DNA of 64,000 nucleotides from Candidatus Elulimicrobiales bacterium (GCA_034927475.1 JAYFPW010000006.1:9197-73196), one strand, 5' to 3'; counted from the stretch's first letter, positions 14,135 through 64,000 are shown. Notes: a model not told the origin generated them from the sequence alone. A program made the numbers and translations.

Positions 14135-14614
14135 CTAAGAATTTTTTGTCTGATTTCTTTTAATAAGTTCTTCTCTTAAATTGACAGCGTGTTTTTTATC
14201 TTCGTCTAAAATATCTAATTTTCCAGACAACTCTCTAATTTTATCAAAAGGACTTTTTTCTTCCTCAATTTTATTTTTCTTTAAAAGATCGATAGCTCTT
14301 AAGTCTTTTTTAGGCTCTTCTTTTTCGATTTTTTTCTCTTGATACCAAACATAAGTTTTGTTTCCAATTAAAAATTTATAAGCTGATTCTAAAATGTCAG
14401 CAAAAGGTCTATTATTTATTTTGACAAAAGCTAGAGCCACAAAAGTTCCAGAAAAAATAAGAATTAAAGGCACAGCTATAATTTTTGCAGGAATAATTCT
14501 CCAAAAAAGATATCCAAAAGCTATAGCCCCCAACAGATACCCAAATTGTTTGAGAGTAAAAGGACCAAAAATCTTATCTTCAATGTCCAAGAATTGAGGA
14601 AGTCTAAATTGCAT
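14135..14614 (-). CDS. PrgI-family / VirB3-like small membrane protein
   Basis: 159 aa with LPQFLDIEDKIFGPFTLKQFGYLLG followed by two TM helices. It sits immediately upstream of VirB4, as in Gram-positive T4SS. Confidence 0.55.
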   Translation of the reverse strand: MQFRLPQFLDIEDKIFGPFTLKQFGYLLGAIAFGYLFWRIIPAKIIAVPLILIFSGTFVALAFVKINNRPFADILESAYKFLIGNKTYVWYQEKKIEKEEPKKDLRAIDLLKKNKIEEEKSPFDKIRELSGKLDILDEDKKHAVNLREELIKRNQTKNS

Positions 14615-14644
14615 GTTTATATTCTATCATTTTTAGCAAAGAAT

Positions 14645-15781
14645 CTAAAAAGCTTCTCTATAGGGATCAAAATTTTCATCAACACTTTCTGGAATCTCTT
14701 CAGACAAAGTACTTTTATAATAGTCATTATTTTTAGCTTTTTGAATTTCTATCTCCTCTTTCTCTCTTTGTTGTCTTAAGGTATCTAAATTTGTTTTCTC
14801 ATCCTCATTTGCAGACAGCTTCTCTTTTAAGTTTTCGACAAGTATTTGACTGAAATCTTCATTTTTGAGAGCTAAAGGATTTTCTTCTGGATATTCTAAT
14901 TCTTCTTCAATTTCCTTTCTCTTAGTCTCCTCTTCTTTTTCTTTGTTTCTTATTTCAGCAACCCTTTCTTCCTCTCTTTTTTCTTTAGCTAAAACTCTTT
15001 GCATTCTTTCATCTTCCTCTCTTTTAATTTGAATCATTCTTTCTTTTATTTTATCCGTATCAGACACATTCTGCATATTTATTTTTGCCAACAAAGAATC
15101 TCTATTCATTTCTTGAACCTTTTTTTCTTCTTCTTTCTTTTTTTCTTCCTCTTTAATAAGCTCTTGTTCAGTCTTCTCTCTTTCTTTATACTGAATTAGA
15201 GGTTCCCCTTTGCCAGTTATAGTACCAGTTCTTTGTAGAAGAATTTTTCTTAGCTCTTCTTTTTCAGCTTCTTCCCTTTTTTCTTTTAAAGTAAGATGTC
15301 TTATTTCTCTTTTGTTTTCAAGTTTACTTTCTAAAATATTTTTACGAATATCAGTAAGAATATAAGTGTCTATACTTTTCAAAATCGAACTTGCTGTAAA
15401 AGATTCCAGCATGATACCGCTAGAGCTAAAACTTTCAACCAGAGTTTCTTTGGCTTCATTAATAGGAAGAAGCCCAACTAAAATTGAAACAGCAATATTT
15501 TCAACAATAACTCTCGCTTTTTCTCCTTCTAATTTTTCTATTTTGCAAATCAAGCGAACACTCTCTTCAAGCTTGTCTCCTAAAATATAGTCTTGTATCA
15601 CTTTTGAAGAATTTGAAAAAGCGGTATCAAATTGAGTAAGGACAATATTTTCATTTTTTTGTGGAGGTTTTTCAGGTTCCTTTTCAGGATTTAAAAAATC
15701 ATAGTCAAAGTCAGCCTCCGTTTCATTTAAAGAATAATCGCCCTCTTTTAGTTCTAAAGCTAATTTATTTTCTTCCGACAT
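14645..15781 (-). CDS. Glu/Lys-rich coiled-coil protein (T4SS-like operon)
   Basis: 378 aa, acidic N-terminus and a long charged coiled-coil region. No catalytic motifs. Confidence 0.5.
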   Translation of the reverse strand: MSEENKLALELKEGDYSLNETEADFDYDFLNPEKEPEKPPQKNENIVLTQFDTAFSNSSKVIQDYILGDKLEESVRLICKIEKLEGEKARVIVENIAVSILVGLLPINEAKETLVESFSSSGIMLESFTASSILKSIDTYILTDIRKNILESKLENKREIRHLTLKEKREEAEKEELRKILLQRTGTITGKGEPLIQYKEREKTEQELIKEEEKKKEEEKKVQEMNRDSLLAKINMQNVSDTDKIKERMIQIKREEDERMQRVLAKEKREEERVAEIRNKEKEEETKRKEIEEELEYPEENPLALKNEDFSQILVENLKEKLSANEDEKTNLDTLRQQREKEEIEIQKAKNNDYYKSTLSEEIPESVDENFDPYREAF

Positions 15782-15815
15782 AAAATAATTATATCAAATA
15801 AATTAGGTTTTTTAA

Positions 15816-18659: not shown

Positions 18660-18680
18660 TTATTTATTTTATCATAAATA

Positions 18681-18718
18681 AAAAACAAAAAGCGGAAAAT
18701 TCCGCTTTTTGTTTTTTA
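18681..18718. terminator. Symmetric hairpin flanked by A/T runs inside the T4SS-like operon
   Basis: AAAAGCGGAAAATTCCGCTTTTT lies between the 803-aa gene and the VirB6-like gene. It could terminate or attenuate in either direction. Confidence 0.5.
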
Positions 18719-18731
18719 AAAGAAAGCAATA

Positions 18732-40921: not shown

Positions 40922-40933
40922 GGTTATTTAAAA

Positions 40934-40968
40934 TAAAAGCCCTCATAAAAGTGAGGGTTTTTGTTTTT
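40934..40968 (+). terminator. Rho-independent terminator after tig
   Basis: AAAGCCCTCAtaaaaGTGAGGGTTTTTGTTTTT. Confidence 0.65.
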
Positions 40969-41039
40969 CTTCTATTTTTAGAACAGATGTTTTTTCTCCA
41001 CCAAGAGATTGTTTAGAACTTGTATCGAATTTAACTAAA

Positions 41040-41232
41040 ACAAAAAGACATTGCAAATATTTAAAAAGACAATATTTTTCTTAAAAATAAAAGACTTATT
41101 TTTTATAAAGGACATAAAAAGACAAAAATTTATAAAGGACATTTAAGAAAATTTACATAAAGGACAAGTTATCCACAGATATTTTCATAAAAGACATTGC
41201 ATTTAATTTAATGTCGTTTATAATATAAACAG
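41040..41232. repeat. Iteron-like array of AAAG(G)ACA(W) units with perfect DnaA box TTATCCACA (41169-41177); member of dispersed intergenic repeat family
   Basis: At least 8 copies of aaaggacat/aaaagacat within ~190 bp. It ends with ATGTCGTTTATAATATAA, which is shared with the copies at 59640, 62195, 48010 (inverted) and 49740. Confidence 0.55.
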
Positions 41233-41311
41233 GGTGAGCAGCTTAGGATAAAAGCGCAACCCGGCTTACGGGAATAATAAAAATAATATCCTATAAAGCT
41301 GGTTCTCACCA
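41232..41311 (+). other. Predicted stable ~80-nt stem-loop (possible small ncRNA; function unknown)
   Basis: GGTGAGCAGC-TTAGGATA-[...CCCGgcttaCGGG...]-TATCCTA-GCTGgttCTCACC are nested helices. It is flanked by AAACAG direct repeats. It does not match tRNA, tmRNA, SRP or RNase P signatures I can recognise. Confidence 0.3.
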
Positions 41312-41546
41312 AACAGTTCGTTACAAGCAACACAAGTTGCATAATAGCTAAAATAAACTAATAATAAATAATAGCACCCAACTTATATATTTTTGTTTGT
41401 CTTTTATAACTTTTAGACAAATAACTCAAAAGTATCTTAAATGTCTTTTATAAAAATAATAATCATCATAAAAGACATAAGCATTGAAAAATGCATCTCA
41501 AATACTAGAGGATGATACCTCACTAAAAACAATCAATATTATTCGT

Positions 41547-41589
41547 GTCCAGCGAATTAAATCCTTTCCAAAGATTTAGCTCGCTGGAC
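41547..41589. other. 43-bp near-perfect palindrome / hairpin
   Basis: GTCCAGCGAattAAATCcTTTccAAAGATTTagcTCGCTGGAC has a 9-bp outer stem and a palindromic inner stem. Confidence 0.4.
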
Positions 41590-41638
41590 ATGAGAAATAT
41601 CAAACTCTCCAATTATTCAGCGTCATGGTTGAGCCAAG

Positions 41639-41667
41639 CTCCCGGTTGAAATATGGGGAGTTTTTTA
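41639..41667 (+). terminator. Rho-independent terminator at end of the 0.96-kb noncoding region
   Basis: CTCCCggttgaaatatGGGGAG followed by TTTTTT. This implies a plus-strand transcript upstream with no ORF. Confidence 0.5.
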
Positions 41668-41884
41668 TTTGCAATTTTATATATAAAAATAACAATTATT
41701 TTAAATATTTTGTCAAGTTGTATTTTTTTCAAAAAAAGCTTTATACTATAAGGGTATTCTTGAAATTCGTTTTTTAAAATAAAAGCGAAAGAAAAGAATG
41801 TGCGCATATTAATAATATTTAAGATAATCCTAGGAAAATATCTTAAATTTAATTTTAAAAAACAAATTTAATTTAAATAAAAAT

Positions 41885-42157
41885 ATGAATAAAGTAGCAC
41901 TTGCAGAAGAGATCAATAAAATCTTAAATACTTCTAAAGCAGAATCAGAAAGAGTTGTTGAAGCTTTGTTTGATTCAATTGCTCACGCTCTTAAAAAAGG
42001 AGAAGAAGTATCAGTAGCAGGATTTGGAAAATTCTCTGTTAAACACAGAAAAGCTAGAGAAGCCAGAAATCCTAAGACTGGAGAAACTGTAAAAGTTCCA
42101 GCATCAAACGCTGTAAAGTTTTCAGTTGCTAAAGCTCTCAAAGAAGCTGTAAAGTAA
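41885..42157 (+). CDS. hup: DNA-binding protein HU
   Basis: 90 aa with GFGKFSVKHRKAREARNPKTGETVKVPA, the canonical HU arm. Confidence 0.9.
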   Translation: MNKVALAEEINKILNTSKAESERVVEALFDSIAHALKKGEEVSVAGFGKFSVKHRKAREARNPKTGETVKVPASNAVKFSVAKALKEAVK

Positions 42158-42178
42158 TTTACTTTTAGATAAAAATAA

Positions 42179-42212
42179 AAGACCGACTATTTTAGTTGGT
42201 CTTTTGTTTTTT
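42179..42212. terminator. Bidirectional terminator after hup
   Basis: AGACCGACTattttAGTTGGTCT followed by TTTTGTTTTTTTT. Confidence 0.6.
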
Positions 42213-42219
42213 TTAAATC

Positions 42220-45628: not shown

Positions 45629-47920
45629 TTATTTCCTAATTTTTGCAACTACGCCTCTGGCTTGAGGAAGTTCATTGTACAACCTGTAAATCTTTGGTGT
45701 CTCTGTATTATCAGAATATTCCCATCTGACAAACATACTTTCTCCAGATCCAGACATGCTAACAATTGGGCTGTACCCCTTCGGAACACCAATCTCCTTA
45801 TTCCAAGTTTCTCCACAGTCTAAAGAAGAGTAAATATCTCCATCCCAATCAGAAATCAAAATCTTGTATCCATCATCAGAAATAGCCACACCGTTCCAAT
45901 AATCGGAACCGAGAGAGGTTATCTCTTTCCACGTCGCCCCTCCATCTCTAGATATAAGTGAGTAACCAGGATTTACACCTTCTATTGGTAACGGTTTGGT
46001 AATAACTATGGTCTTGCCATCTTTAGACGCATCTATTCCAGTAACAAGAGATAATAAAGGAGGATTTGTGTCTACCCAAGTTTTTCCTTCATCAGTAGAA
46101 ATATAAACACTGTCTGTAAAAGCAATAAATTTACTTCCACTATTTTCTACAAAAAGTTTTTTATTATACCAATATCCGCCTCTAGCAAGCTCTTCATGTT
46201 CTTCATATTCAATGTCTTCTAGTATAAAGTTTTCATCTAAAAGACTCTGTATTTCTAATTTGAAGAAATATAAGTAACCTATAAAATAGAGATATTTACC
46301 ATCAGGAGAAATATCGAAAGCGTCAAAAAAGATAGGAAAATCTGGAGGAAAATCATTCCAGGTATCACCACCGTCTAGAGAGAATATTGAATCTTCTGTT
46401 ATTCCATAAATCTTGTTTCCAAGAAATATAACTTCTCCATTTTCAGACATCTTTAAATCTACCCAATCGCCTAATGGAGCGCTACTGAGATTCCAATCTT
46501 GACCATAGTTATTAGAAATATAGACACTACCTTCTGATAAGGCCACAACCTTGTCTCCTTTCTTAGAAATTGCTAAAGAATCCAAAGACATTTGTCCAAT
46601 TTCTAACCAATCATTATATGTTAAAAGAAAGATATTATCTTCACTATAAGCAATACCTTTTTCATTCTCTACGAAAAATCTATAACGATAATAAGAGTTG
46701 GGTGTTAAATTTGTTGCGGTAGCTGTAAAAGTTCCCACATTAAAACTATCTGCTTCTTCTAAGATTTCATACGTACAAGAACTTTCCAGTGTAGCGCTTG
46801 AACAATATTCTACTCCTCGCCTTGTATGATTTGTGTTAATAAAAGCAGAAAAAGAAACTTCTGTTTGATTTCTAATAGCATAGGATAACGAAAATATTTT
46901 CGGTTTTTCTAATTCACCATATGAGTAAATATATCCATTTTGAAATCCAACAAAAAAATTCTTACCTTCACCATCTACAGAAATAGTTGTAGCTGACCAT
47001 TCTTCATCAGGTTTTAATACCTCTTTCCAACTTTTTCCACCATCAATAGAAAGTCCTATTTGATAGGCATTAATGGTCATTGATTTATTCCCGTCTCTAG
47101 AAGTGGCTAGTCCAGATGCTGCATAGCTCGGAGATTCAGCTTTATGCCAAGTATCTCCTCCATCTGTAGAATATGAGACAACTGCACCATTGGTTGCGGT
47201 TATTATTATGTTGTTTTCATCATCAGAGACTGATAAATCTTCCCAATACCAATAACCATCGTCATAAGTATAAGTGGTTATTGGTTTAGATATCCAAGTG
47301 GCTCCGTAATTATTTGAGATGAAAAAAGCGTCAGACCATCCGACAGATAGGATCTTTTCCCCATTTGGGGATACGTAAATATCTTTAGGATTTATGGGAT
47401 CAGTAGAACTTGCCCAACTTTCTCCAGAATCAGTTGACACATAAACCCTTATGCGATAATCATTTCTGTTATGAGCTATAGTCCCAATGGTTTTTCCATC
47501 ATCTGATAAGGATATATTGTGCCAATAGTCAACTTCAGGCGGATTATTTAAAGAGCTCCATGTTGCTCCAAAATCGGAAGATAGGTATATATAATTTTTT
47601 CCAGAAGCTATTACATATTTTCCGTCTGGAGAAGAATTAATATCTGACCAATGTTGAACGGGAAAACTTTTTAATTCCCAGGTATTTCCTTTGTCTTTAG
47701 ATATATAAATATTTTCACCATAATTTTCAATTGCAGCCAGTTGATTTCCGTCAGAAGAAGAGGTTATGGCTTTCCAATTTCTTTTGCCTGCATTAGTTTT
47801 AGCAGTCCAAACCATAGATATATTTGTCGTAGTAGCTTCTTGCGCAAAACTAAGACCAAAAGAAAAAAGTAGAGAAAGGATAAAGGCAGTAATAGTGAGT
47901 TTTTTAATAATATTTTTCAT
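45629..47920 (-). CDS. Secreted BNR/Asp-box repeat beta-propeller protein with Fn3-like insert
   Basis: Signal peptide plus >=10 Asp-box motifs (SKDKGNTW, SSDFGATW, STDSGESW, STDGGDTW, SIDGGKSW, SLDGGDTW, STDEGKTW, SRDGGATW, SLDCGETW). The TATATNLTPNSYYRYRFFVENEKG segment is shared with the 62378+ paralogue. Confidence 0.7.
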   Translation of the reverse strand: MKNIIKKLTITAFILSLLFSFGLSFAQEATTTNISMVWTAKTNAGKRNWKAITSSSDGNQLAAIENYGENIYISKDKGNTWELKSFPVQHWSDINSSPDGKYVIASGKNYIYLSSDFGATWSSLNNPPEVDYWHNISLSDDGKTIGTIAHNRNDYRIRVYVSTDSGESWASSTDPINPKDIYVSPNGEKILSVGWSDAFFISNNYGATWISKPITTYTYDDGYWYWEDLSVSDDENNIIITATNGAVVSYSTDGGDTWHKAESPSYAASGLATSRDGNKSMTINAYQIGLSIDGGKSWKEVLKPDEEWSATTISVDGEGKNFFVGFQNGYIYSYGELEKPKIFSLSYAIRNQTEVSFSAFINTNHTRRGVEYCSSATLESSCTYEILEEADSFNVGTFTATATNLTPNSYYRYRFFVENEKGIAYSEDNIFLLTYNDWLEIGQMSLDSLAISKKGDKVVALSEGSVYISNNYGQDWNLSSAPLGDWVDLKMSENGEVIFLGNKIYGITEDSIFSLDGGDTWNDFPPDFPIFFDAFDISPDGKYLYFIGYLYFFKLEIQSLLDENFILEDIEYEEHEELARGGYWYNKKLFVENSGSKFIAFTDSVYISTDEGKTWVDTNPPLLSLVTGIDASKDGKTIVITKPLPIEGVNPGYSLISRDGGATWKEITSLGSDYWNGVAISDDGYKILISDWDGDIYSSLDCGETWNKEIGVPKGYSPIVSMSGSGESMFVRWEYSDNTETPKIYRLYNELPQARGVVAKIRK

Positions 47921-48690: not shown

Positions 48691-48760
48691 AATAAAAGGA
48701 CAGAAAAAAGACTTTCAGATACATTGAAAGTCTTTTTCTTTATATTTTATAAGGTTTTTG

Positions 48761-48833
48761 TCGGAGTGCAGGGATTCGAACCCTGAGTCGCTGGTACCCA
48801 AAACCAGAATGTTAGCCGTTACACCACACTCCG
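48761..48833 (-). tRNA. tRNA-Pro (anticodon TGG)
   Basis: Reverse complement is CGGAGTGTGGTGTAACGGCTAACATTCTGGTTTTGGGTACCAGCGACTCAGGGTTCGAATCCCTGCACTCCGA. It has a 7-bp acceptor stem, a TTCGAAT T-loop, and a TTTGGGT anticodon loop. Confidence 0.8.
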
Positions 48834-48985: not shown

Positions 48986-49411
48986 TTAAAGAATAAATTC
49001 TTCATAGAATCTTATTTTAGCTTGTTTGGTATTTACATTTAAAAATACAATTATAGCCATGACTTTTATATCTATTTCCCCTTCCGATATTTTTCTAAAA
49101 GACAAATAATGTTTTATAGCTTTTAATATTCTTTGTCTTTTAGTTTTGGTTAGATTATTTTCTGGAGAATAAGCAAAATCATTTATTTTCTCGAAACTAG
49201 CTATTTTTTTAGTTTTTACCTCTATAAAAGCTAGGTTTTGTAGTTTCACGTGTAAATATTTTTGTCTTTCATTGAAATTCTTGCTAGCAATAATGTCTAT
49301 TTCCCCTCCTTTCACGTGAAAATTCCTTTCAATTATAGAGAAATCTTTATTTTTTAAATATTTCACAGCTAATTCTTCACCCAATTTACCTATTTCATTA
49401 TGTTCAGCCAT
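48986..49411 (-). CDS. yraN: YraN/UPF0102-family predicted endonuclease
   Basis: 141 aa with GKLGEELAVKYLKNKDFSIIERNFHVKGGEIDIIA...FIEVKTKK, matching the UPF0102 pattern. Confidence 0.7.
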   Translation of the reverse strand: MAEHNEIGKLGEELAVKYLKNKDFSIIERNFHVKGGEIDIIASKNFNERQKYLHVKLQNLAFIEVKTKKIASFEKINDFAYSPENNLTKTKRQRILKAIKHYLSFRKISEGEIDIKVMAIIVFLNVNTKQAKIRFYEEFIL

Positions 49412-49435
49412 ATATTCATCTTTATTTTATCATAA

Positions 49436-49463
49436 GTTTCACATGAAATTTTCATGTGAAATC
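49436..49463. promoter_or_regulatory. Perfect 25-bp palindrome TTTCACATGAAA-T-TTTCATGTGAAA; core of a cluster of TTTCAC(A/G)TGAAA sites
   Basis: Additional half-sites are at 49596-49607, 49531-49545 (TTTTACGTGAAAA), 50680-50691, and inside yraN at ~49245 and ~49308 (TTTCACGTGAAA). All lie in or near the yraN-ung divergent region. Confidence 0.45.
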
Positions 49464-49885
49464 ACTTTTTAAGTAAAATATTTAATTTAGAAATTAAAAA
49501 ATAATGTTTGTTTTTAGAATAAACAAAAACGTTTTACGTGAAAAATAAGAAAAACAAAAGAAAAAATAGTAGAACTATAGGAATTAATATTTTTGTTTCA
49601 CATGAAACAAAAAAGACATAAAATTGAGCAAAAAAGCCTTAAAAATAAAGACTTAAGGAATAAGCCTTATTTTAAGGACTTATTTGAAATAAACCTAGTG
49701 TCTTTTAGAAAATGTCTTTTAGAAAATGTCTCTTAAAAACATGTCGTTTATACACATTTGCACGGACTTTTCCACTATATTTTATAAAAGACAAGATTTT
49801 TTTCAAATGTCTTTTTGTTTAAAAAGTCTTTTATTATTCTTCAAATAACCTGAGAGAATATGCTAAGATTTTATATATAACAATT

Positions 49886-50587
49886 ATGAGTAACGATTCT
49901 AAATTTTTATCTAAAAAAGAAATTGTTCTAAATCCAGAATGGAAGCTGATTTTAAAAGATTTTTTCGATACTGAAGATTGGAAGAACTTAACTAGCTTCG
50001 TTAAGGAAGAATATTTAAATAAAAAACAAGAAATATATCCTGACCCCAAAAATCTTTTTAAAGCTTTTGATTTAACGCCATTCTCTAAAGTAAAAGTCAT
50101 AATTTTAGGACAAGATCCATATCACGATAAAGGACAGGCGCACGGACTTTGTTTTTCTGTTCCTGAAAATATTAATCTGCCACCATCTTTAAAAAACATT
50201 TATAAAGAAATAGAAAAAGATTTGAATATCAAAAAAGATTATACAAAAGGGAATTTAGAAAATTGGGCAAAAGAAGGAGTTTTTCTTTTAAATAGTATTT
50301 TAACTGTTATTGCTCATAATCCAGCTTCACATAGAAATAAGGGTTGGGAGAAATTTACTGATCACATAATTTCAATTTTGTCTGATAAAAGAGAAAATCT
50401 TGTCTTTTTGTTGTGGGGGAATTATGCTCGCAGCAAAAAAAGTCTTATAGACTCTAAACGACATTTAATTTTAGAATCCGTGCACCCATCACCATTTTCT
50501 GCAAATAACGGATTCTTTGGTTGTAAGCATTTTTCTAAAACTAACAAATATTTAAAAGAGTATAATATTAAAGAAATAAATTGGTAA
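49886..50587 (+). CDS. ung: Uracil-DNA glycosylase (family 1)
   Basis: Has GQDPYH and HPSPFS motifs; 233 aa. Confidence 0.9.
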   Translation: MSNDSKFLSKKEIVLNPEWKLILKDFFDTEDWKNLTSFVKEEYLNKKQEIYPDPKNLFKAFDLTPFSKVKVIILGQDPYHDKGQAHGLCFSVPENINLPPSLKNIYKEIEKDLNIKKDYTKGNLENWAKEGVFLLNSILTVIAHNPASHRNKGWEKFTDHIISILSDKRENLVFLLWGNYARSKKSLIDSKRHLILESVHPSPFSANNGFFGCKHFSKTNKYLKEYNIKEINW

Positions 50588-50784
50588 TTTTTTAATTTAC
50601 AAAAATAAATATCTTTCAAATTGCTTTCCGTTTTGCAAAAGATTTTTAAAAACTCTTTATTTTTAAATGTTTAATGATGTTTCACATGAAAGTTATAGTT
50701 ATAAACAGGGGAGTGTTCTCTAAAAATATTTTTTATGATATATTATTACAAGTCGCCTTCGTTATAGGCTTTGGTGTACTGAAT

Positions 50785-50855
50785 GCGGTGTTGGTTTAGT
50801 GGTAGAACACGTCCTTGCCAAGGATGAGACAGGAGTTCGATTCTCCTACGCCGCA
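50785..50855 (+). tRNA. tRNA-Gly (anticodon GCC)
   Basis: Sequence GCGGTGTtggtttagtggtagaacacgtccTTGCCAAggatgagacaggaGTTCGATtctcctACGCCGCa has cloverleaf pairing and a TTCGATT T-loop. Confidence 0.85.
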
Positions 50856-50896
50856 CAAAATAATCAATAATTATGATTTCTTCTTTTAATTTCAAT

Positions 50897-50967
50897 GCGA
50901 TATTGGTCTAATGGTATGACGCAAGCTTCCCAAGCTTGAAACAAGAGTTCGATTCTCTTATGTCGCA
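50897..50967 (+). tRNA. tRNA-Gly (anticodon CCC)
   Basis: Sequence GCGATATtggtctaatggtatgacgcaagcTTCCCAAgcttgaaacaagaGTTCGATtctcttATGTCGCa has a CAAGC/GCTTG anticodon stem. Confidence 0.8.
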
Positions 50968-51017
50968 CATAGTTAAGAGTTTATTGCTATTTTTTTGATT
51001 TTTATTATAATTATTAT

Positions 51018-51300
51018 CTCTTTCCCAAATGATTACAGATTTTATTTTTTTAAAATCTGAGGAAAGTCGGAACACATACCTCTTCTTTGAAAGTTAAAAA
51101 GGTAGCGGGTAACGCCCGTCCATCGTGAGATGAGAGTTGCGAACAGTGACGAACCTATTTATTTAGGGTGAAACGGCTAAATACTTACCTGTGTGTAAGG
51201 TCGTGCTTTGATTTATTTCAAAGAGTGCCGCTAGAATTTTGAAGTAATTCAAAATCCAGATAAATAATCATATAAACAGAATTCCGCTTATGTGAAAGAG
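51018..51300 (+). ncRNA. rnpB: RNase P RNA (bacterial type, minimal ~283 nt)
   Basis: P1 CTCTTTC/GAAAGAG, P2 ATGATT/AATCAT, a P3 hairpin, and the conserved blocks GAGGAAAGTCGG, GGTAACGCCCG, AGGGTGAAACGG and ACAGAATTCCGCTTAT (P4 strands). It is followed by a terminator. Confidence 0.75.
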
Positions 51301-51305
51301 AATAT

Positions 51306-51340
51306 GAAAAACCACTTGTTAAAGACAAGTGGTTTTTCTT
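51306..51340 (+). terminator. Rho-independent terminator after rnpB
   Basis: AAAAACCACTTGTtaaagACAAGTGGTTTTTCTTTT. Confidence 0.65.
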
Positions 51341-51363
51341 TTGAATCAAGATTTGTTAAATTA

Positions 51364-51687
51364 TTATTTAACGACTTTTTTAGTTGTTGTTTTCTTAGGA
51401 GAGGTCTTTTTTATTTCAACTTTTTTCGTTGTTGGTTTTTTAGCGACAACTTTTTTTACTTCAACTTTCTTTGTCTCATCTTTTTTAATTGGAGCCTTTT
51501 TAGGAATAACGATTGTCTCGTCAACTTCTTCAATTTCAGCAGCTAAAGCTTTATCTTTCAAAGAATTAATTGCTTTCATCGCGGAAGCTTTTTTTGTATA
51601 ACTTTCTGTCCAGAAAATAACTTCTTTTCTGTAAACAAATTGAACCCTAAAACCATTTTCATTCTTAATTAATTTAAATTTGTGCAT
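51364..51687 (-). CDS. DUF1508/YegP-family domain protein with lysine-rich histone-H1-like C-terminal tail
   Basis: The N-terminal ~55 aa (KFKLIKNENGFRVQFVYRKEVIFWTESYTKKASAMKAINSLKD) follows the YegP repeat pattern. The C-terminus is (K/T/V/P)-rich: KKVVAKKPTTKKVEIKKTSPKKTTTKKVVK. Confidence 0.65.
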   Translation of the reverse strand: MHKFKLIKNENGFRVQFVYRKEVIFWTESYTKKASAMKAINSLKDKALAAEIEEVDETIVIPKKAPIKKDETKKVEVKKVVAKKPTTKKVEIKKTSPKKTTTKKVVK

Positions 51688-51790
51688 AATGTTTAAAAAT
51701 TTTTAATACAGAGAATATTATAATACAGATTTCTTAAAAAAAGTTTTTTGTTTTACTTGTGTTAATTTTTATGCTAAAATACTTCTGAAT

Positions 51791-51861
51791 GCGGTGTTGG
51801 TTTAGTGGTAGAATACCTGCCTTCCAAGCAGGGGACAAGGGTTCGATTCCCTTACGCCGCA
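51791..51861 (+). tRNA. tRNA-Gly (anticodon TCC)
   Basis: Sequence GCGGTGTtggtttagtggtagaatacctgcCTTCCAAgcaggggacaaggGTTCGATtcccttACGCCGCa. Confidence 0.85.
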
Positions 51862-51890
51862 CAAAAAAATTTGCTAAACTATATTTAGCT

Positions 51891-51962
51891 GCTCCCGTGG
51901 TGAAATGGATATCACATCGGTCTTCGGAACCGCTGTTCTGGGTTCGAATCCTGGCGGGAGCA
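51891..51962 (+). tRNA. tRNA-Arg (anticodon TCG)
   Basis: Sequence GCTCCCGtggtgaaatggatatcacatcggtCTTCGGAaccgctgttctgGGTTCGAATcctggCGGGAGCa has a 7-bp acceptor stem and a TTCGAAT T-loop. The anticodon-stem call is less certain. Confidence 0.65.
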
Positions 51963-52100
51963 CTGAAAATTTTATTAAAGACAAAACTTAATATAAAAGT
52001 TGTCTTTTAGAAATATATCTTTTTAAGATGTCTTTTATATTTTTTGCTATATAATAGAAGCATTATTAATCTTAATTAAATATAAATATAAAAATTAAAT

Positions 52101-52496
52101 ATGTCATACATAACAAATATTGAAAAAGATACATTAGAAAATTCAAATTTTAGAAAAGTTCTCTTTACCGCAAAACATATGCAACTCGTAGTAATGAGCA
52201 TTCCAGTGGGAGGGGATATTGGAATGGAAACTCACGGAGATGTTGACCAATTTATTAGAGTAGAAAAAGGAAAAGCAAAATCTATCCTTAATGGAGTAGA
52301 AACAGAATTAGAAGATGATTTTTCAGTAATTGTTCCAGCTGGTACAGAACATAATATTGTAAATATTGGAGATGAAGATTTGAAAGTTTATACAATTTAC
52401 GCAAGACCTGAACATAAAAAAGGAACAATTCATACAACTAAAGAAGACGCAATGGCTAATGAGGAACATTTTGACGGTGCGACAGATGTAGAATAA
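52101..52496 (+). CDS. Cupin-domain protein
   Basis: 131 aa. The G(x)5HxH...E...H-like cupin motifs (METHGDVDQFIRVEKG; VPAGTEHNIVN) follow the RmlC-like cupin pattern. Confidence 0.65.
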   Translation: MSYITNIEKDTLENSNFRKVLFTAKHMQLVVMSIPVGGDIGMETHGDVDQFIRVEKGKAKSILNGVETELEDDFSVIVPAGTEHNIVNIGDEDLKVYTIYARPEHKKGTIHTTKEDAMANEEHFDGATDVE

Positions 52497-52519
52497 AAAA
52501 TAAAATAAAATGAAAACAG

Positions 52520-54022
52520 ATGACAAATATTTCACAAGAAACGATAAATAAAAAAAATATTCCTGAAGAAGTTCTTTGGGTGTGTGAAATGTTGTCAAAA
52601 AATAACTTCGATAGTTATTTGGTTGGGGGTTGTGTTAGAGATTTATTTCTTTCACGTGAACCAGGAGACTGGGATATCACAACTAATGCAACTCCAGACG
52701 AGATAATTAACATTTTTGGTGAAGATGAAACGGTTTATGAAAATCCTTTTGGAACTGTTGGTGTAAAAATAAGAAAAAATGATAGTGAAACGGAAGAAGT
52801 TGAAATCATAGAAGTTACAACTTATAGAAAAGAAGGAGAATATGAAGATTTTCGTAGACCAAATAAATTAGAATGGGGTAAAACCATAGAAGAAGATTTA
52901 GAGAGAAGGGATTTCACAATGAATGCTATAGCTTATAATCCTATAAACGACATTCTAAAAGACATTTATAAAGGACAAAATGATATAAAGGACAAAATTA
53001 TTAGAACAGTCGGAGAGGCGGAAGAAAGGTTTAATGAGGACGCTCTTCGCATGCTTAGAGCTGTACGCTTTTCAGCTCAATTGAATTTTGTGATTTCTAA
53101 TGAAACCTTAGAGGCTATTTTTCGCTTGGCATCAAATTTAGAAAAAATCTCTAAAGAAAGAATTCGTGATGAATTCATAAAAATAATTATGTCTTCTAAT
53201 CCAATGCAAGGATTACTCATTTCACAAAAATTGGGAATGTTGAAATATATTTCATCTGAGTTAGAAAGTGCCGTTGGAATAGAACAAAACGGACACCACG
53301 CTTTTGATGTTTTCGAGCATTCTCTTCGATCTTTGAATCACGCGGCTTCTCGGGAGTTTGATTTAGAAATTAAGTTAGCAGCTTTGTTCCACGATATCGG
53401 AAAAGTTAAAACCAGAAGATTTGATGAAACGAAAAAAGATTACACTTTTTATGGACATGAAGTGGTTAGCGAAAGAGTGACTAAGAAAATTTTAGAAGAA
53501 TTAAAAGTAGAAAAGAAAGTTATAGAAAAAACTTGTAAGCTAGTGCGATATCATATGTTCTTTTCTGATCCGAATGAAGTTAAGCTTTCTTCTGTCAGGA
53601 GACTTATTGTAAATATCGGAAAAGAAAATATTTGGGATTTAATTAATCTAAGACTTTGCGATAGAATGGGATCTGGAACAAAGAAAGAAGAACCTTGGAG
53701 ACTGCGAAAATTTGAAAGCATGATAGAAGAAGCTCTTCGTGATCCGATTTCTCTCAAAACTTTAAAAATAGATGGAGAAAAAATTATGACTATTCTAAAT
53801 GAAAAACCAGGGAAAAAGATTGGGTTAATTTTGCACGCGCTTTTTGAAGAAGTGATAGACAATGCATCCAAAAATAATTTAGAATATTTAGAGAAGAGGG
53901 TTTTAGAATTAAATAAATTAAGTGAGATAGAATTAGAAAGTTTAGGAACTTCTGGAAAAGATAAAATGCAAAATTTAAACGAAGAAGAATTGGTAGAAAT
54001 AAAGAAAAAGTTTAAAGTTTAA
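52520..54022 (+). CDS. cca: CCA-adding tRNA nucleotidyltransferase with HD domain
   Basis: Has GGCVRDLFLSREPGDWDITT (polβ-type NTase head), RDFTMNAIAY, and HD motifs (HHAFDVFEHS, LFHDIGK); 500 aa. Confidence 0.85.
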   Translation: MTNISQETINKKNIPEEVLWVCEMLSKNNFDSYLVGGCVRDLFLSREPGDWDITTNATPDEIINIFGEDETVYENPFGTVGVKIRKNDSETEEVEIIEVTTYRKEGEYEDFRRPNKLEWGKTIEEDLERRDFTMNAIAYNPINDILKDIYKGQNDIKDKIIRTVGEAEERFNEDALRMLRAVRFSAQLNFVISNETLEAIFRLASNLEKISKERIRDEFIKIIMSSNPMQGLLISQKLGMLKYISSELESAVGIEQNGHHAFDVFEHSLRSLNHAASREFDLEIKLAALFHDIGKVKTRRFDETKKDYTFYGHEVVSERVTKKILEELKVEKKVIEKTCKLVRYHMFFSDPNEVKLSSVRRLIVNIGKENIWDLINLRLCDRMGSGTKKEEPWRLRKFESMIEEALRDPISLKTLKIDGEKIMTILNEKPGKKIGLILHALFEEVIDNASKNNLEYLEKRVLELNKLSEIELESLGTSGKDKMQNLNEEELVEIKKKFKV

Positions 54023-54477: not shown

Positions 54478-56121
54478 ATGATTCTTACTCCATTACAAAA
54501 TAAAATTCTAGAACAAAAAGGATTTGATTTAGAGAATAAAGCTGAGCTAGAAAAATTTTTATTTCCAAATTGGGATAGAGATTTGTTGGATACAAAAAAA
54601 ATAAAAGACATAGACAAAAGCATCAAAAGAATTAAAAAGGCGATAGATGAAAATGAAAAAATTATTATCTATGCAGACTACGATTGCGATGGAATACCAG
54701 GAGCGGTAATTTTAAATGATTTTTTTGAAAAGATAAATTATAAAAATTTTTCAGTTTATATTCCACACAGACACAATGAAGGCTATGGTTTAAATAAAAA
54801 TGCGATTCAGAAATTTATTGAAGCCGAAGTTTCTTTACTTATTACAGTAGATGTCGGTATTACCAATTTAGAAGAAATAAAATTTGCAGAAGAAAATGGA
54901 ATTAACGTAATTGTCACAGATCATCATCTCCCAATTTTAGACGATAAAGCTAAACAGATTTTACCTAAAGCTTTTTCTATAATAAACACAAAGCAAATAG
55001 GAGATAAGTCCGAAGAAAAGTTTTTGTGTGGAGCTTCGACTGCTTGGAAATTGGTGAATGCTTTTTTAAATAAATATAGAAAAGAATTTGGTATAGGGGA
55101 AGGATGGGAAAAATGGTTGCTGGACATGGTGGGGATTGCAACTATTGCTGACTTGGTGCCTTTAAAAAATGAGAATAGATTATTGGCTAAATATGGTTTG
55201 GCGGTTTTAAAAAAAACTAGACGCCCAGGTCTTTTAAGAATTCTTAGTAATGCAAAAGTTAATCAGAAAAAAATAAATGAAGATGATATAGCTTTTGCTT
55301 TAGCTCCTAGAATAAATGCGGCTTCTCGTATGGCTGAGCCAATACACGCTTTTTATGCTTTACTTCAAAATGAAGAAGCTGTTAATTATGCGAATGAATT
55401 AGAAAAATATAATTCTGCCAGAAAGCAAGAATCTAAAGACGCAGAGACTATTATTGATTATGAAAAATTTTCCGAAGAAAAAATAATTTTGATTGGTGAT
55501 GAAAAGTGGACACCTGGAATAATTGGATTAGTTGCTAGTAGAGTTTGTGAGACAGTCAAGAAGACAACTTTTGTCTGGGGAGTAGGGGAAGATGAAAATA
55601 TTTTAAAAGGATCTGTGAGAGCAGGAGAAGATGGATACAATGTGGTAGAAATCATGACAAGTTGTCAGTATCTTTTTGAAAATTTTGGTGGACATGAGAT
55701 GGCTGGTGGATTTGCAATTCATAAAAATAATTTAGGAAAGTTTCAGGAATTTTTAAGAGAATATAAAATTGAAAGAAAAGAAAATCAAGAAATAGAAGAG
55801 AAGAAAAATTTAGAATTTATTGATATAGAGATTAAAGATGTAAATAGAAAACTTTTTGACCAAATAAAAATTTTTGCTCCGTTTGGAATGCAAAACGAAA
55901 AAATAATTTTTAAAATAAAATTAAAAGAAAATGATTTTGTTCAAAGTAAGAGATTCGGTAAAAATTTAGAACACTTAGAAATTTCTATTAATGGAATTCG
56001 AGGTATAGAATTTTTTGTCAGCGAAGAGAGAGAAAATAAACTTTTAGCTCAAAAAGAATTTTTAATAAATTTGGAATGGGATAATTTTCGAGGAGACATT
56101 GTGATGAGATTTGTAAAATAA
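54478..56121 (+). CDS. recJ: Single-stranded-DNA-specific exonuclease RecJ
   Basis: DHH motifs (IIYADYDCDGIPGAV, VIVTDHHLP) and a DHHA1 domain (GGHEMAGGF). Confidence 0.9.
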   Translation: MILTPLQNKILEQKGFDLENKAELEKFLFPNWDRDLLDTKKIKDIDKSIKRIKKAIDENEKIIIYADYDCDGIPGAVILNDFFEKINYKNFSVYIPHRHNEGYGLNKNAIQKFIEAEVSLLITVDVGITNLEEIKFAEENGINVIVTDHHLPILDDKAKQILPKAFSIINTKQIGDKSEEKFLCGASTAWKLVNAFLNKYRKEFGIGEGWEKWLLDMVGIATIADLVPLKNENRLLAKYGLAVLKKTRRPGLLRILSNAKVNQKKINEDDIAFALAPRINAASRMAEPIHAFYALLQNEEAVNYANELEKYNSARKQESKDAETIIDYEKFSEEKIILIGDEKWTPGIIGLVASRVCETVKKTTFVWGVGEDENILKGSVRAGEDGYNVVEIMTSCQYLFENFGGHEMAGGFAIHKNNLGKFQEFLREYKIERKENQEIEEKKNLEFIDIEIKDVNRKLFDQIKIFAPFGMQNEKIIFKIKLKENDFVQSKRFGKNLEHLEISINGIRGIEFFVSEERENKLLAQKEFLINLEWDNFRGDIVMRFVK

Positions 56122-56233
56122 TAGTTCTTATAAGAAATAACATAAAAGAGGTATTTTAAAACGGGCCCAGCAAGTGAAAGTCAAAAAATATTCTTTGTTT
56201 TTTAGAGATATCTAAATATGCTAAAATGTTTTT

Positions 56234-56764
56234 ATGAAATTGACTTTCTATACCGATGGGGCGAGTCGCGAAAATCCTGGAAGGGGAGGTTGGGGTGTTT
56301 ATGCGGAAATTTTAGGTAGCGGTGGAGAAGAGAAAACTTTTAAACTCTCTGGCGCAAATCCATACACGACTAATAATAGAATGGAATTAACAGCCTGTAT
56401 ACAAGCTTTAAGATTTTTAGACATGGTAGTTTTAAATAAATATTTTGTAGATAAAAAAAATCTAGGAAAAGAATTTTTAGTAACCATAAAAACAGATTCT
56501 CAATATGTAAAAAAAGGAATAACTGAATGGATAGAAAATTGGCAAAAAAATAATTGGAAGGGAGCAAATAAAAAACCAGTTTTAAATAAAGAGCTTTGGC
56601 AAAAGTTTTTAAAAATAAAAAATACTATTAACGATAAACTTTTAGAAAATAATTTTCCGGAAATTAAATTTGAATATGTAGCTGGACACGCTGGAATTAA
56701 AGGAAATGAGATCGCTGACGAACTTGCGACAGAAGCAGCAGATAAATTATTAGCTGAAGAATAA
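56234..56764 (+). CDS. rnhA: Ribonuclease HI
   Basis: Has FYTDGASRENPGRGGWGV, TDSQYVKKGI, and AGHAGIKGNEIADELA. Confidence 0.9.
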   Translation: MKLTFYTDGASRENPGRGGWGVYAEILGSGGEEKTFKLSGANPYTTNNRMELTACIQALRFLDMVVLNKYFVDKKNLGKEFLVTIKTDSQYVKKGITEWIENWQKNNWKGANKKPVLNKELWQKFLKIKNTINDKLLENNFPEIKFEYVAGHAGIKGNEIADELATEAADKLLAEE

Positions 56765-56772
56765 AATTATCC

Positions 56773-58329
56773 ATGCCTCTAAAATATTTTATTGCTATAG
56801 CGCTTGGAATATTTTTAGGAATAAATATCGCCTACTCTTTAAATTTTTCTACAGAGATATTTTTTGTTTCACTCGTTATTTGTTTCATAAATTTTTTAAT
56901 CTTTAAATTTTTCAAAAAGAACAGCGGAAAAGAAAAAAGTGAAACACCTATTTTTCTTAGTATTTTATTTTTAAGCTTAGCTTTTGGAATAATTCTAGGA
57001 CAAATTTCAATTTCTAAATCTGTTTTACAAAAAGAGAGATTTAATAATTTCATTTCACAAAAAGAAAATTTTATTGGATTAATCTCCAACGTGAAACAAT
57101 CTGAAAAATCTCAGCAACTTATTTTAAAAATAAAAAACGAGGATAATGATTTCAAAATTAAAATTGTTACAGCAAAATTTCCAGAGTTTAAGGTCGGAGA
57201 ATTTATTAAAGTTGAAGGAAAAATTGGAGAGGGTAAAATTTTATTACCAAATACGGAAAATAAAATAAATAAGTCTTTCGATCTAGAGATTCAAGATAAG
57301 CTAAAAAATATTGATGGAGAAATTGCTTTTCCTAAAATTTTAACTATAGAAAATTTAGAAACAAAAGTGTCTCTTTTTGAAAAATTTTCTTTTTATTTAC
57401 AAAATCAAAAAAGTAATTTTGTCAAAAAACTAGATACTTTAGCTCCGAGAGTTGTAGCCTCACTTACAGCTGGAACAACTTTAGGTGATGATTCTTTATT
57501 TTCTAAAGAAGAGATAAATAATTTTCGAATTTCAGGACTTTCTCATATCATCGTACTCTCTGGTTTTAATATAACTATTTTGATAGTCTTTTTCTCATTC
57601 TTATTTTTAAATTTAAATTTGAGATTAAAATTGCGCATATTTCTAACTCTAGTCTCTATTATTATTTTTATAATTTTTGTCGGCGCAGAACCCTCTATTT
57701 TGAGAGCGGCGATAATGGGAGGAGTCTTACTTTTGGGAAATATCTCTGGTAGACAATATGTCGCCAAACAGGCTCTCTTTTTAGCTGCTTTATTTATGAT
57801 GATACTTAATCCAAAAATTGCAGTTTTTGATATTTCTTTTCATCTCTCATTTTTAGCAACTTTTGGCATACTTTATCTTTTACCAATTTTTGATGAATAT
57901 AAATTTTTTAGCCAAGAAAGATTTAAAAATAAATTTGCAAAAAATCTTTTAGAAATTTTCAAACTTACTTTAGCGGTACAGATTTTAGTCTCGCCATATA
58001 TTATTTTTAAGTTTAGTAATTTATCTCTCTTTGGAATAGTTGGAAATCTTTTAGTGGTGCCAGTGATACCGATAATTATGTTTTTGGCTTTCTTAATAAT
58101 TTTATTTTCTTTTCTTCCAGGTCTTTCTATTTTCTTTGGATATTTATCTTTTATTTTTTCTAAATATATTTTTCTGGTAGTAGAATTTATTTCTAGTTTT
58201 TCTTTTTCGAAATTAGATTTTTCAATATCAAGTTTAGAAATGTTTTTGATTTATTTCTTAATTATATTTTATCTTTCTTTTGAAAAGAAAAGAATTAAGA
58301 TTCAAAAATATTTAAAAGAAGAAAAATAA
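56773..58329 (+). CDS. comEC: ComEC/Rec2 competence channel, membrane (DUF4131 + competence) portion
   Basis: Multi-TM with the signature RISGLSHIIVLSGFNITIL. It is followed 17 bp later by a separate MBL-domain ORF. Confidence 0.85.
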   Translation: MPLKYFIAIALGIFLGINIAYSLNFSTEIFFVSLVICFINFLIFKFFKKNSGKEKSETPIFLSILFLSLAFGIILGQISISKSVLQKERFNNFISQKENFIGLISNVKQSEKSQQLILKIKNEDNDFKIKIVTAKFPEFKVGEFIKVEGKIGEGKILLPNTENKINKSFDLEIQDKLKNIDGEIAFPKILTIENLETKVSLFEKFSFYLQNQKSNFVKKLDTLAPRVVASLTAGTTLGDDSLFSKEEINNFRISGLSHIIVLSGFNITILIVFFSFLFLNLNLRLKLRIFLTLVSIIIFIIFVGAEPSILRAAIMGGVLLLGNISGRQYVAKQALFLAALFMMILNPKIAVFDISFHLSFLATFGILYLLPIFDEYKFFSQERFKNKFAKNLLEIFKLTLAVQILVSPYIIFKFSNLSLFGIVGNLLVVPVIPIIMFLAFLIILFSFLPGLSIFFGYLSFIFSKYIFLVVEFISSFSFSKLDFSISSLEMFLIYFLIIFYLSFEKKRIKIQKYLKEEK

Positions 58330-62194: not shown

Positions 62195-62335
62195 AAACGA
62201 TAAACGACAAAGTTATCCACATCTTGTCCTTTACAAAATATTGTCTTTTATAAAATGTCGTTTATAATATAAGTATATAAGTAAGGGTGCTTAGAGCTTT
62301 TTGCTCTAGGCATCTTTTCTTTGTATAAAATATCC
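62195..62335. repeat. Dispersed promoter-proximal repeat copy with perfect DnaA box TTATCCACA (62213-62221) and conserved 5'UTR hairpin
   Basis: Same architecture as the other copies. The GCTTAGAGCtttttGCTCTAGGC hairpin is shared with the inverted copy at 47990-48020. Confidence 0.6.
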
Positions 62336-62377
62336 AATTAAAAATAAAAATAAATTATAAAACATTATAAAAATTTT

Positions 62378-64000
62378 ATGAAAAAACTATTATTTACTTT
62401 CTTTGCTTTCGCAATAATATTATCTTCTTTTTCTTTTACTTTTGCGGAAGGGGCAACAAGTACAGCTACCAGTACTTATGGGTGGGTAGCAGAAGTAGCA
62501 TCTGGAGAAAGGAGATGGACTTCCATCACCTCATCCTTTGACGGCACGAAATTGGCTGCAGTTTTAAATGATGGTTACATCTATACCTCCACCGACTCTG
62601 GAGTAACTTGGACAGAACAAACAAGTTCTGGTTCAAGAGAATGGTCTTCCATCACCTCTTCTTCTGATGGAACAAAATTAGCGGCAGCGGTATATGATGG
62701 TTATATTTACAGCTCCACCGACTCTGGAGTAACTTGGACAGAACAAACTGGTTCTGGACAAAGACCTTGGAAATCCATCACTTCTTCTACTGACGGAACA
62801 AAATTAGCGGCAGCGGTATATGATGGTTATATTTACACCTCCACCGACTCTGGAGTAACTTGGACAGAACAAACTGGTTCTGGACAAAGACCTTGGGAAT
62901 CCATCACCTCATCTGCTGACGGTAGTAAATTAGCAGCAGTAGGAGCTAGTGGCTATATCTACACCTCCACTGACTCTGGGGCTACTTGGACAGAACAAAC
63001 TGGTTCTGGACAAAGACCTTGGAAATCCATCACCTCTTCCGCTGACGGAACAAAACTTGCGGCAGCACCATATTATGGTTACATCTACACCTCCACCACT
63101 TCTGGAGTAACTTGGACAGAACAAACTGGTTCTGGACAAAGACCTTGGGAATCCATCACCTCTTCTGCTGACGGAACAAAACTTTCAGCAGTAGTAAGAT
63201 ATGATGGTTACATCTACACCTCCACCACTTCTGGAGTAACTTGGACAGAACAAACAAGTGCTGGACAAAGAGGGATGTGGAAATCCATCACCTCTTCTGC
63301 TGACGGTACAAAGTTGGCAGCAGTAGCATATTATGATTACATCTACACCTACGGTCCTATTCCTTTACCAACAGTTGTTTCTAATCCTACATCTATAACA
63401 AATAGAACTTCTTTAGTGTTTAATGGCTATGTGAACACTTCGCACACTATACATGGAGTAGAATACTGTATTACAGGAGCATCTAATACACCTTGTGATT
63501 TTGCTAATGCCGAAAGAATAGAAGAAGAAGGATCTTATAGTTTAGGAGATATTGCTTTTACTGTTGATAATGTAACCCCTAACTCTTTCTTGCATTATAG
63601 ATTTTATGCTGAGAATGAAGAAGGTAGAAGTTATTCAGATGTTCAAACTATTTTTTTTGAATATAAAGAATTCAGACAGCAAACAAGTTCTGGTTCAAGA
63701 GACTGGTCTTCCATCACCTCTTCTTCTGATGGAACAAAATTAGCGGCAGCGGTATATGATGGGTATATTTACACCTCCACCGATTCTGGAGCTACTTGGA
63801 CAGAACGAACAAGTGCTGGTTCAAGAAGTTGGGTTTCCATCACCTCTTCTGCTGATGGAACAAAATTAGTGGCAGTAGTAGAGGGTGGCTACATCTACAC
63901 CTCCACCGACTCTGGATTAAATTGGGCACGGCAAGAAAGTGCTGGTTCAAGAAGTTGGACTTCCATCACCTCATCCTTTGACGGCACGAAATTGGCTGCA
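62378..64000 (+). CDS. Secreted BNR/Asp-box-like tandem-repeat surface protein (N-terminal part; continues beyond window)
   Basis: ATG at 62378 with a signal peptide (LLFTFFAFAIILSSFSFTFA). It then has >=9 near-identical 42-aa units (W.SITSS.DGTKLAAAVYDGYIYTSTDSGVTWTEQTGSGQRP), an Fn3-like unique segment (TPNSFLHYRFYAENEEGRSY) also present in 45629-47920, and further repeats. The frame is open to 64000. Confidence 0.7.
   Translation, partial: MKKLLFTFFAFAIILSSFSFTFAEGATSTATSTYGWVAEVASGERRWTSITSSFDGTKLAAVLNDGYIYTSTDSGVTWTEQTSSGSREWSSITSSSDGTKLAAAVYDGYIYSSTDSGVTWTEQTGSGQRPWKSITSSTDGTKLAAAVYDGYIYTSTDSGVTWTEQTGSGQRPWESITSSADGSKLAAVGASGYIYTSTDSGATWTEQTGSGQRPWKSITSSADGTKLAAAPYYGYIYTSTTSGVTWTEQTGSGQRPWESITSSADGTKLSAVVRYDGYIYTSTTSGVTWTEQTSAGQRGMWKSITSSADGTKLAAVAYYDYIYTYGPIPLPTVVSNPTSITNRTSLVFNGYVNTSHTIHGVEYCITGASNTPCDFANAERIEEEGSYSLGDIAFTVDNVTPNSFLHYRFYAENEEGRSYSDVQTIFFEYKEFRQQTSSGSRDWSSITSSSDGTKLAAAVYDGYIYTSTDSGATWTERTSAGSRSWVSITSSADGTKLVAVVEGGYIYTSTDSGLNWARQESAGSRSWTSITSSFDGTKLAA
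62459..64000 (+). repeat. Near-perfect 126-bp tandem repeats inside coding sequence (interrupted 63340-63690)
   Basis: Unit starts at 62585, 62711 and 62837 are exactly 126 bp apart with >90% nucleotide identity. 63940-64000 re-matches 62500-62560 exactly. Confidence 0.7.

Follow-up and report, generated by a model that had tools for sequence, protein, structure and literature searches.

parS, the bacterial centromere, is a near-universal site of chromosome partition, a 16-bp palindrome at which the partition protein ParB (Spo0J), a helix-turn-helix dimer, loads onto the DNA. In Bacillus subtilis, one such site lies within spo0J. The chromosomal parS consensus, TGTTNCACGTGAAACA, and its half-site, GTTTCAC, are used here as given in a review of these systems (PMC7022226). 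We analyzed a stretch of 64,000 nucleotides (nt) from Candidatus Elulimicrobiales bacterium (GCA_034927475.1 JAYFPW010000006.1:9197-73196), hereafter the window, which has a GC content of ~31% and comes from a Patescibacterium, one of a group of ultra-small bacteria. In it, a compact cluster of palindromes lies in and around yraN, a gene of the UPF0102 family of predicted nucleases (48986-49411, minus strand; Pfam PF02021, E = 3.6e-21). We interpret these palindromes as chromosomal parS sequences and predicted ParB sites, a reading to which we assign a probability of roughly 0.85.

As in the Spo0J/parS system of B. subtilis, the sites described below correspond to the same 16-bp palindrome (TGTTNCACGTGAAACA) with the same GTTTCAC half-site, include several degenerate copies, some of them within coding sequences, and occupy an apparently origin-proximal position. 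Unlike the B. subtilis sites, they are not located beside parAB, and in none of the loci did we find a ParB gene within ±6 to 10 kb; further, the gene that hosts them is yraN, their central CG is often replaced by CA, TG, or TA, and the copies in the window are weak in their outer arms. Strong and weak parS sites are likewise packed within a few kilobases near oriC in Caulobacter crescentus, Pseudomonas aeruginosa (parS1-4), Corynebacterium glutamicum, and Myxococcus xanthus, in contrast to which the cluster reported here takes up much less DNA, with most of its sites inside ~500 bp, and keeps to a single small gene throughout the clade. A palindrome with similar outer arms is also found in the Noc-binding sites (NBS, ATTTCCCGGGAAAT) of Firmicutes, which are bound by a ParB paralogue. 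However, NBS are scattered over the chromosome rather than clustered, and their core is CCCGGG, whereas that of the present sites is CACGTG or, more generally, CAC(G/A)TG; hence, we rejected an identification of the latter as NBS.

The parS sites in and around yraN

A first-pass annotation of the window, made from the sequence alone, had reported a cluster of palindromic 12-mers around the divergently transcribed yraN and ung genes. A scan of all 64 kb for TTTCACGTGAAA, allowing at most one mismatch, recovered 19 matches on both strands, against an expectation of 2.1 ± 1.7 (maximum, 6) from 100 dinucleotide-preserving shuffles. Sixteen of these matches are accounted for by just eight sites between 49244 and 52661, and every one of the six copies of the 10-mer TTCACRTGAA or its mirror in the 64 kb falls inside 49311-52660. 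The clustering is real and far beyond what is expected by chance. The eight sites comprise a perfect copy of TTTCACGTGAAA at 49310-49321; three copies of TTTCACATGAAA at 49437-49448, 49596-49607, and 50680-50691; its mirror, TTTCATGTGAAA, at 49450-49461; and single copies of TTTCACGTGTAA (49244-49255), TTTTACGTGAAA (49532-49543), and TTTCACGTGAAC (52650-52661), the last lying within cca, beyond the range given in the annotation. The annotated sites themselves stand, with their positions shifted by 1 to 3 bases (e.g., 49310 instead of 49308), and the 25-bp palindrome described there is indeed perfect but spans 49437-49461 instead of 49436-49463.

When their flanks are included, the sites resolve into parS. 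Four in the window match the 16-mer TGTTTCACGTGAAACA with at most three mismatches, where 0.37 would be expected, and GTTTCAC, the left half-site, is unaltered at 49243, 49436, 49595, and 50679. The strongest, TGTTTCACATGAAACA (49594..49609), agrees with TGTTNCACGTGAAACA at 15 of 16 positions and is situated 185 bp upstream of yraN, in the 474-bp spacer (49412-49885) that separates this gene from ung (uracil-DNA glycosylase; 49886-50587, plus strand; Pfam PF03167). The other sites retain the 12-bp core and have weaker outer arms (11 to 13 of 16). Closest to yraN is an overlapping pair, AGTTTCACATGAAATT (12/16) and ATTTTCATGTGAAATC (11/16), at 49435..49463, the centers of which are 13 bp apart and which together form the 25-bp palindrome, 26 bp upstream of the yraN start codon; this pair is kept in the related loci L005 and L006. 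A weaker site between the pair and the strongest site, CGTTTTACGTGAAAAA (49530..49545; 13/16), is kept in L005. Two further sites lie within yraN, namely, CCTTTCACGTGAAAAT (49308..49323; 12/16, with a perfect 12-mer core), which codes for N-F-H-V-K, and AGTTTCACGTGTAAAT (49242..49257; 12/16), which codes for L-H-V-K, and both are kept in L005 to L008. Beyond ung, TGTTTCACATGAAAGT (50678..50693; 13/16) lies between that gene and the gene for tRNA-Gly (GCC), and sites are present at the equivalent position in L005, L006, and L009. The last one, TCTTTCACGTGAACCA (52648..52663; 14/16), is doubtful: it lies at conserved L-S-R-E-P codons of cca, strain L005 (98% related) lacks it, and in L020 the coding sequence accounts for it, suggesting that it probably coincides with these codons by chance. 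We also noted that a 47-amino-acid (aa) open reading frame in the spacer begins at a parS site.

More exact copies are found in relatives. Perfect parS 16-mers occur at position 9127 of L041 and in L090, L096, L102, L107, L121, L124, L126, and L131, and in L121 eight parS sites are spread over ~500 bp across the start of yraN (5660-6177), seven of which are perfect copies of TGTTTCACGTGAAACA. The identity of these sequences with parS is thereby established, and in this sense the cluster in the window is an ordinary element of a known kind, a chromosomal parS cluster. The first-pass annotation had anticipated that the repeated sites are bound by a dimeric helix-turn-helix protein, and ParB, the predicted ligand, is of just this type. 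The same annotation's alternative of a restriction-modification or methylation target is not supported, because such a target would not be confined to one 3.4-kb stretch.

Conservation of the cluster with yraN across lineages

We examined the phyletic distribution of the sites in two sets of loci. The first comprised 80 ung loci from species-representative genomes, among which the closest genome to that of the window is Patescibacteria group bacterium UBA5272 (98% Ung identity). All eight loci with yraN and cca beside ung (L005 to L009, L020, L035, and L041) carry the sites, whereas none of the 72 without yraN beside ung has a parS cluster. Even L035 and L041, the Ung proteins of which are only ~60% identical to that of the window, have six and eight matches, respectively, to the 16-mer with at most three mismatches, a perfect copy of TGTTTCACGTGAAACA included. 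Orthologous sites persist in relatives of 60 to 98% Ung identity, with the intergenic DNA around them barely alignable. An alignment of the spacer upstream of ung from six relatives revealed just two conserved blocks, a parS site and a DnaA-box-like block (see below); the best-conserved block is the ortholog of the strongest site, 49594..49609, the center of which varies among CACGTG, CACATG, and CATGTG in L006 to L009.

The second set, retrieved by scanning metagenomes with a YraN alignment, consisted of 80 further metagenomic loci (573 kb), in which YraN is 29 to 76%, mostly 30 to 40%, identical to that of the window. We found 110 sites with at most two mismatches in 40 of these loci, all 110 of them between -2250 and +500 relative to the yraN start; 36 lie in the 250 bp upstream of the gene and 33 in its first 250 bp (69 within ±250 bp). 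The remaining ~430 kb of the metagenomic yraN loci contains no site at this threshold. By our estimate, chance alone would give ~0.25. Among the 35 parS-bearing loci with full flanks, pairwise YraN identity has a median of 48% and is above 90% for a single pair, indicating that they represent many lineages. Among the loci without sites are contigs of high GC content (up to 69%), which probably come from other phyla. Proteins 84 to 90% identical to the YraN of L126 carry the NCBI names Parcubacteria, Paceibacterota, and Nomurabacteria, and by these names of close homologues the parS-bearing lineages belong to that assemblage.

Hence, the cluster tracks yraN and not ung: the association is with yraN alone, and not with the divergent yraN-ung pair to which the annotation had linked it, ung being a mere neighbor unconnected to the sites outside this lineage. 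In this Parcubacteria/Paceibacterota-type clade, the parS cluster is conserved and always anchored in and just upstream of yraN.

The sites within the coding sequence reveal what is being conserved. Across lineages they occur at no fewer than eight codon positions (+64, +86, +119, +164 to +185, +203, +233, +260 to +275, and +314), and those in L041 and the window are not homologous. They impose the peptide V-S-x-E-T (GTT TCA NNN GAA ACA), with R, C, H, or Y at the center codon. We counted 33 occurrences of the motif V[S/A]xET in the 39 YraN genes of parS-bearing loci and none in the 41 genes from loci without parS, and 31 of the 33 are encoded in the parS-compatible form GTT(T/G)C....GAAAC, compared to ~20% expected from codon usage. 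Sites at different codons in each lineage, together with the peptide that they force, establish that selection acts on the DNA. We infer that these sites bind ParB and serve in chromosome segregation.

A DnaA-box block and a candidate oriC beside the cluster

The second conserved block lies at 49741..49776 (minus strand), in the half of the spacer nearer ung. The plus strand of this segment holds TTATACACA (at 49748) and TTTTCCACT (at 49768), spaced by 20 bp. The segment corresponds to a block of ~37 nt, TGTGGATAAC-TATGTTGGTAATG-TTTATAAAGGACAT, that is strongly conserved upstream of yraN in many lineages and is made up of three DnaA boxes in direct orientation, one perfect and two degenerate; its consensus form is TGTGGATAACTATGTTGGTAATGTTTATAAAGGACAT. 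In the 573 kb of metagenomic loci, 21 of the 34 perfect TTATCCACA boxes are located in the 250 bp upstream of yraN, in a single orientation, and boxes with at most one mismatch reach 2.57 per kb there versus 0.41 per kb overall. The block is flanked by further repeats. Three AT-rich direct repeats of 14 nt (GTCTTTTAGAAAAT) at 49699..49741 belong to the TGTCYTTTA/TAAARGACAT motif family; more generally, TGTC(C/T)TTTA/TAAA(A/G)GACAT and TAAGGAT(A)TTTTA flank the DnaA boxes in both orientations and are conserved across lineages (49699-49830 in the window, 5710-6000 in L126, and other yraN loci). We matched neither the TGTCYTTTA-family repeats nor TAAGGAT(A)TTTTA to a known motif, and no DnaA-trio pattern was recognized beside the boxes. 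The conserved order of the module is a tRNA gene, TGTCCTTTA, TAAGGATTTTA, the DnaA-box block, TTGTCTTTTA, AAATAAGGATATTTT..AAAAGACAT, parS1, parS2, and yraN.

A structured noncoding RNA in the 474-bp spacer is ruled out by the lack of an Rfam match (E ≤ 1) and of covariation: the consensus fold of the module is worth only -0.94 kcal/mol, with no compensatory pairs. Local GC skew takes a lower value on the upstream side of yraN than on the downstream side in 21 of 22 parS-bearing loci, with a change from negative to positive sign in 15, whereas in loci without parS it is lower upstream in 8 of 13 and changes sign in 1 of 13, a comparison confounded by the conserved divergent order of cca and yraN. 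Over the window as a whole, the raw skew, with a minimum at ~29-38 kb, follows gene orientation, and skew at third codon positions is noisy. The strand switch between yraN and ung was dropped as an origin signature, since it is not conserved in L009.

Taken together, the DnaA-box block, the lack of RNA structure, and the local change in skew mark the module beside yraN as a candidate oriC unlinked to dnaA, an assignment that we favor by a modest measure, and 49741..49776 as a candidate region of DnaA assembly within it. Like bacterial oriC, the block has TGTGGATAA and two DnaA-box-like 9-mers in direct orientation, is AT rich, shows (subject to the confounding noted above) a local sign change in GC skew, and lacks RNA structure; unlike a typical oriC, it has only two or three boxes and in the window is 43 kb from dnaA. 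The genes dnaN, dnaA, rpmH, rnpA, and yidC occupy 3.6-8.0 kb of the window, placing dnaA and dnaN ~43 kb from the parS cluster in the same sequence. Few DnaA boxes occur at the classical origin positions beside dnaA (4753-5089 and 6437-6588). In the dnaA-dnaN spacer, TTATCAACA and TTTTACACA are the only box-like 9-mers, though their presence calls for some caution over an origin at yraN, and the 152-bp dnaA-rpmH spacer has no DnaA box at up to one mismatch. Elsewhere in the window, a perfect DnaA box occurs at 41169, in a 1.3-kb segment without long open reading frames (40922-42219) that also holds a gene for HU (41885-42157).

ParB, rival explanations, and implications

Several observations weigh against the interpretation of the palindromes as sites of ParB action. 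Only one site in the window (49594-49609) fits the outer TGTT/AACA arms well, the others scoring 11 to 13 of 16; in four sites CACATG replaces CACGTG, so that one half-site is broken; and the sites at 49437 and 49450 overlap with their centers 13 bp apart, because of which two ParB dimers could not fill both as full 16-mers. Most chromosomal parS clusters, moreover, lie near parAB. Here, no ParB gene was recovered from the window, the 9 kb to its left, or the 160-odd loci by tblastn with B. subtilis Spo0J, a ParB hidden Markov model, and, in the window, a scan for the GERRxRA motif. Two protein database searches, one with Spo0J and the other with a synthetic low-GC ParB consensus, yielded only ParB proteins of Bacillus and Clostridia. 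The presence of ParB in the host genome is thus an assumption on our part, made because the site is exact and conserved. Two ParB-like matches were set aside. The one in L064 (3636-4994, minus strand) joins a ParB-N domain to a DNA methyltransferase-like domain; it is found by phage-like genes, ~3.4 kb from ung in a related metagenome-assembled genome, and is unrelated to the parS cluster. The other, in L108, is an open reading frame for a divergent protein from a higher-GC organism with no parS at yraN.

If ParB is indeed present, its dimers would nucleate at the strong site (49594-49609) and probably, more weakly, at the roughly six degenerate sites within yraN or ahead of it, as well as at 50678. 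Once loaded, it would spread over the surrounding few kilobases to form a partition complex beside the origin, and this nucleoprotein complex would mark the origin-proximal region for segregation, together with ParA, and for the loading of SMC. As parS1 and parS2 precede the yraN start codon by 26 to 185 bp, transcription of this gene would probably also be lowered by ParB. There is precedent for this in P. aeruginosa, where ParB at the promoter-proximal parS3 and parS4 can repress adjacent genes (PMC7022226); the intergenic sites described here may act likewise.

A bolder proposal, which we regard as rather unlikely, is that the parS array and the dnaA-unlinked origin make up a single module of ~300 bp permanently fused to yraN, with parS written into YraN itself as V-S-x-E-T. 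The linkage might then be functional, and YraN could act at the origin or the partition complex; in its most extreme form, there would be no ParB, with YraN itself recognizing the palindrome. Recognition of a merely parS-like array by a protein other than ParB, such as YraN with its PD-(D/E)xK nuclease fold, can also be considered more generally. The sites are strictly tied to yraN in every lineage examined, and no ParB gene was found in ~1.9 Mb of DNA from this and related organisms. However, the exact 16/16 pan-bacterial ParB site recurs in many lineages, for which convergence is very improbable; yraN homologues of other, mostly higher-GC organisms lack such sites; and the failure to find ParB pertains only to the window, the 9 kb to its left, and the loci examined. 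Recognition by YraN or another such protein is possible only if ParB is truly absent, and on this evidence we deem it very unlikely.

We give even less credence to a dedicated transcription factor that would use the palindromes as operators to control yraN, ung, and the tRNA genes, an idea akin to the basic helix-loop-helix-type E-box or local regulator operator suggested in the annotation. The promoter-proximal placement of several sites, which precede yraN by 26 to 185 bp and tRNA-Gly by ~95 bp, would suit such a role, and at 49597 TTCACA-16-TAAAAT resembles a sigma-70 promoter. But the full 16-mer with its flanks is the canonical parS, the sites also lie within coding sequences (yraN and cca), at shifting, nonhomologous codons, and ung is irrelevant to the association. 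Nor is there any transcription factor or other regulator gene among the neighbors of the sites. Given that ParB at parS can repress adjacent genes (PMC7022226), a regulatory side effect needs no additional factor. We also rejected the motif as a -35 promoter element, as a suitably spaced -10-like hexamer is present only at 49597.

It is extremely improbable that the sites are DnaA boxes or another element of oriC as opposed to partition sites: GTTTCACA does resemble the relaxed DnaA box TTWTNCACA, and the sites adjoin the conserved DnaA-box block, but the conserved unit is the whole palindrome GTTTCAC|GTGAAAC and not a 9-mer, and the true DnaA boxes (TGTGGATAA) are separate elements of the same module, with a fixed orientation and position of their own. 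Finally, a compositional artifact or copies of a small mobile repeat (a miniature inverted-repeat transposable element), which the ~31% GC content and the commonness of TTTCAC or GTGAAA hexamers might suggest, is effectively refuted by the excess over dinucleotide-preserving shuffles (19 matches versus 2.1), the lack of any similarity between copies past 12 to 16 bp, and the retention of the sites in distant lineages.

Several RNA genes surround the parS cluster. On the yraN side lies tRNA-Pro (48760-48833, minus strand). Downstream of ung, on the plus strand, are tRNA-Gly (GCC) and tRNA-Gly (CCC) (50785-50856 and 50897-50968), the RNase P RNA (51017-51305), and tRNA-Gly (TCC) and tRNA-Arg (51791-51862 and 51891-51963). 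The RNase P RNA, positioned between tRNA genes, is a reduced class A version of 289 nt, against a model of 367 positions, and scores 102.3 bits for a gathering threshold of 100. Between it and the last two tRNA genes, a DUF1508 (YegP-like) protein is encoded on the minus strand (51364-51687); its long lysine-rich tail (KKAPIKKDETKKVEVKKVVAKKPTTKK...) resembles histone H1, and it may be a nucleoid-associated protein encoded near the parS/DnaA-box region. These are followed, again on the plus strand, by genes for a cupin-domain protein (52101-52496), cca (52520-54022), and recJ, rnhA, and comEC (54478-58329).

Other features of the window are more distant. At 11708-21143, on the minus strand, is a type IV secretion/pilus-like gene cluster coding for a TraG/VirB4-like ATPase, a PrgI-family protein, and several large proteins without a Pfam match. 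At 62300-64000, a coding repeat of 126 bp (42 aa), W.SITSS.DG.KLAAV..DGYIYTS, is present in nine or more copies, which belong to a gene for a BNR/sortilin-like repeat protein that runs past the right end of the window, where public assemblies of the species break. A 763-aa protein encoded at 45629-47920 is similar in style to this repeat protein.

In the library searched, we found no paper that describes parS or ParB in Patescibacteria or links parS to yraN. What is unusual about the cluster is its rigid tie to one small gene and to a conserved DnaA-box block. The comparison presented here shows that, across a wide range of uncultivated Patescibacteria, the centromere and this block share a location at yraN, apart from dnaA. 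It thereby provides a concrete candidate for the oriC and parS of organisms in which neither replication nor segregation has been studied. The yraN/parS module also serves as a landmark for orienting and checking assembled genomes of the group, and its context is a first hint at what the UPF0102/YraN family, conserved in many organisms, may do.

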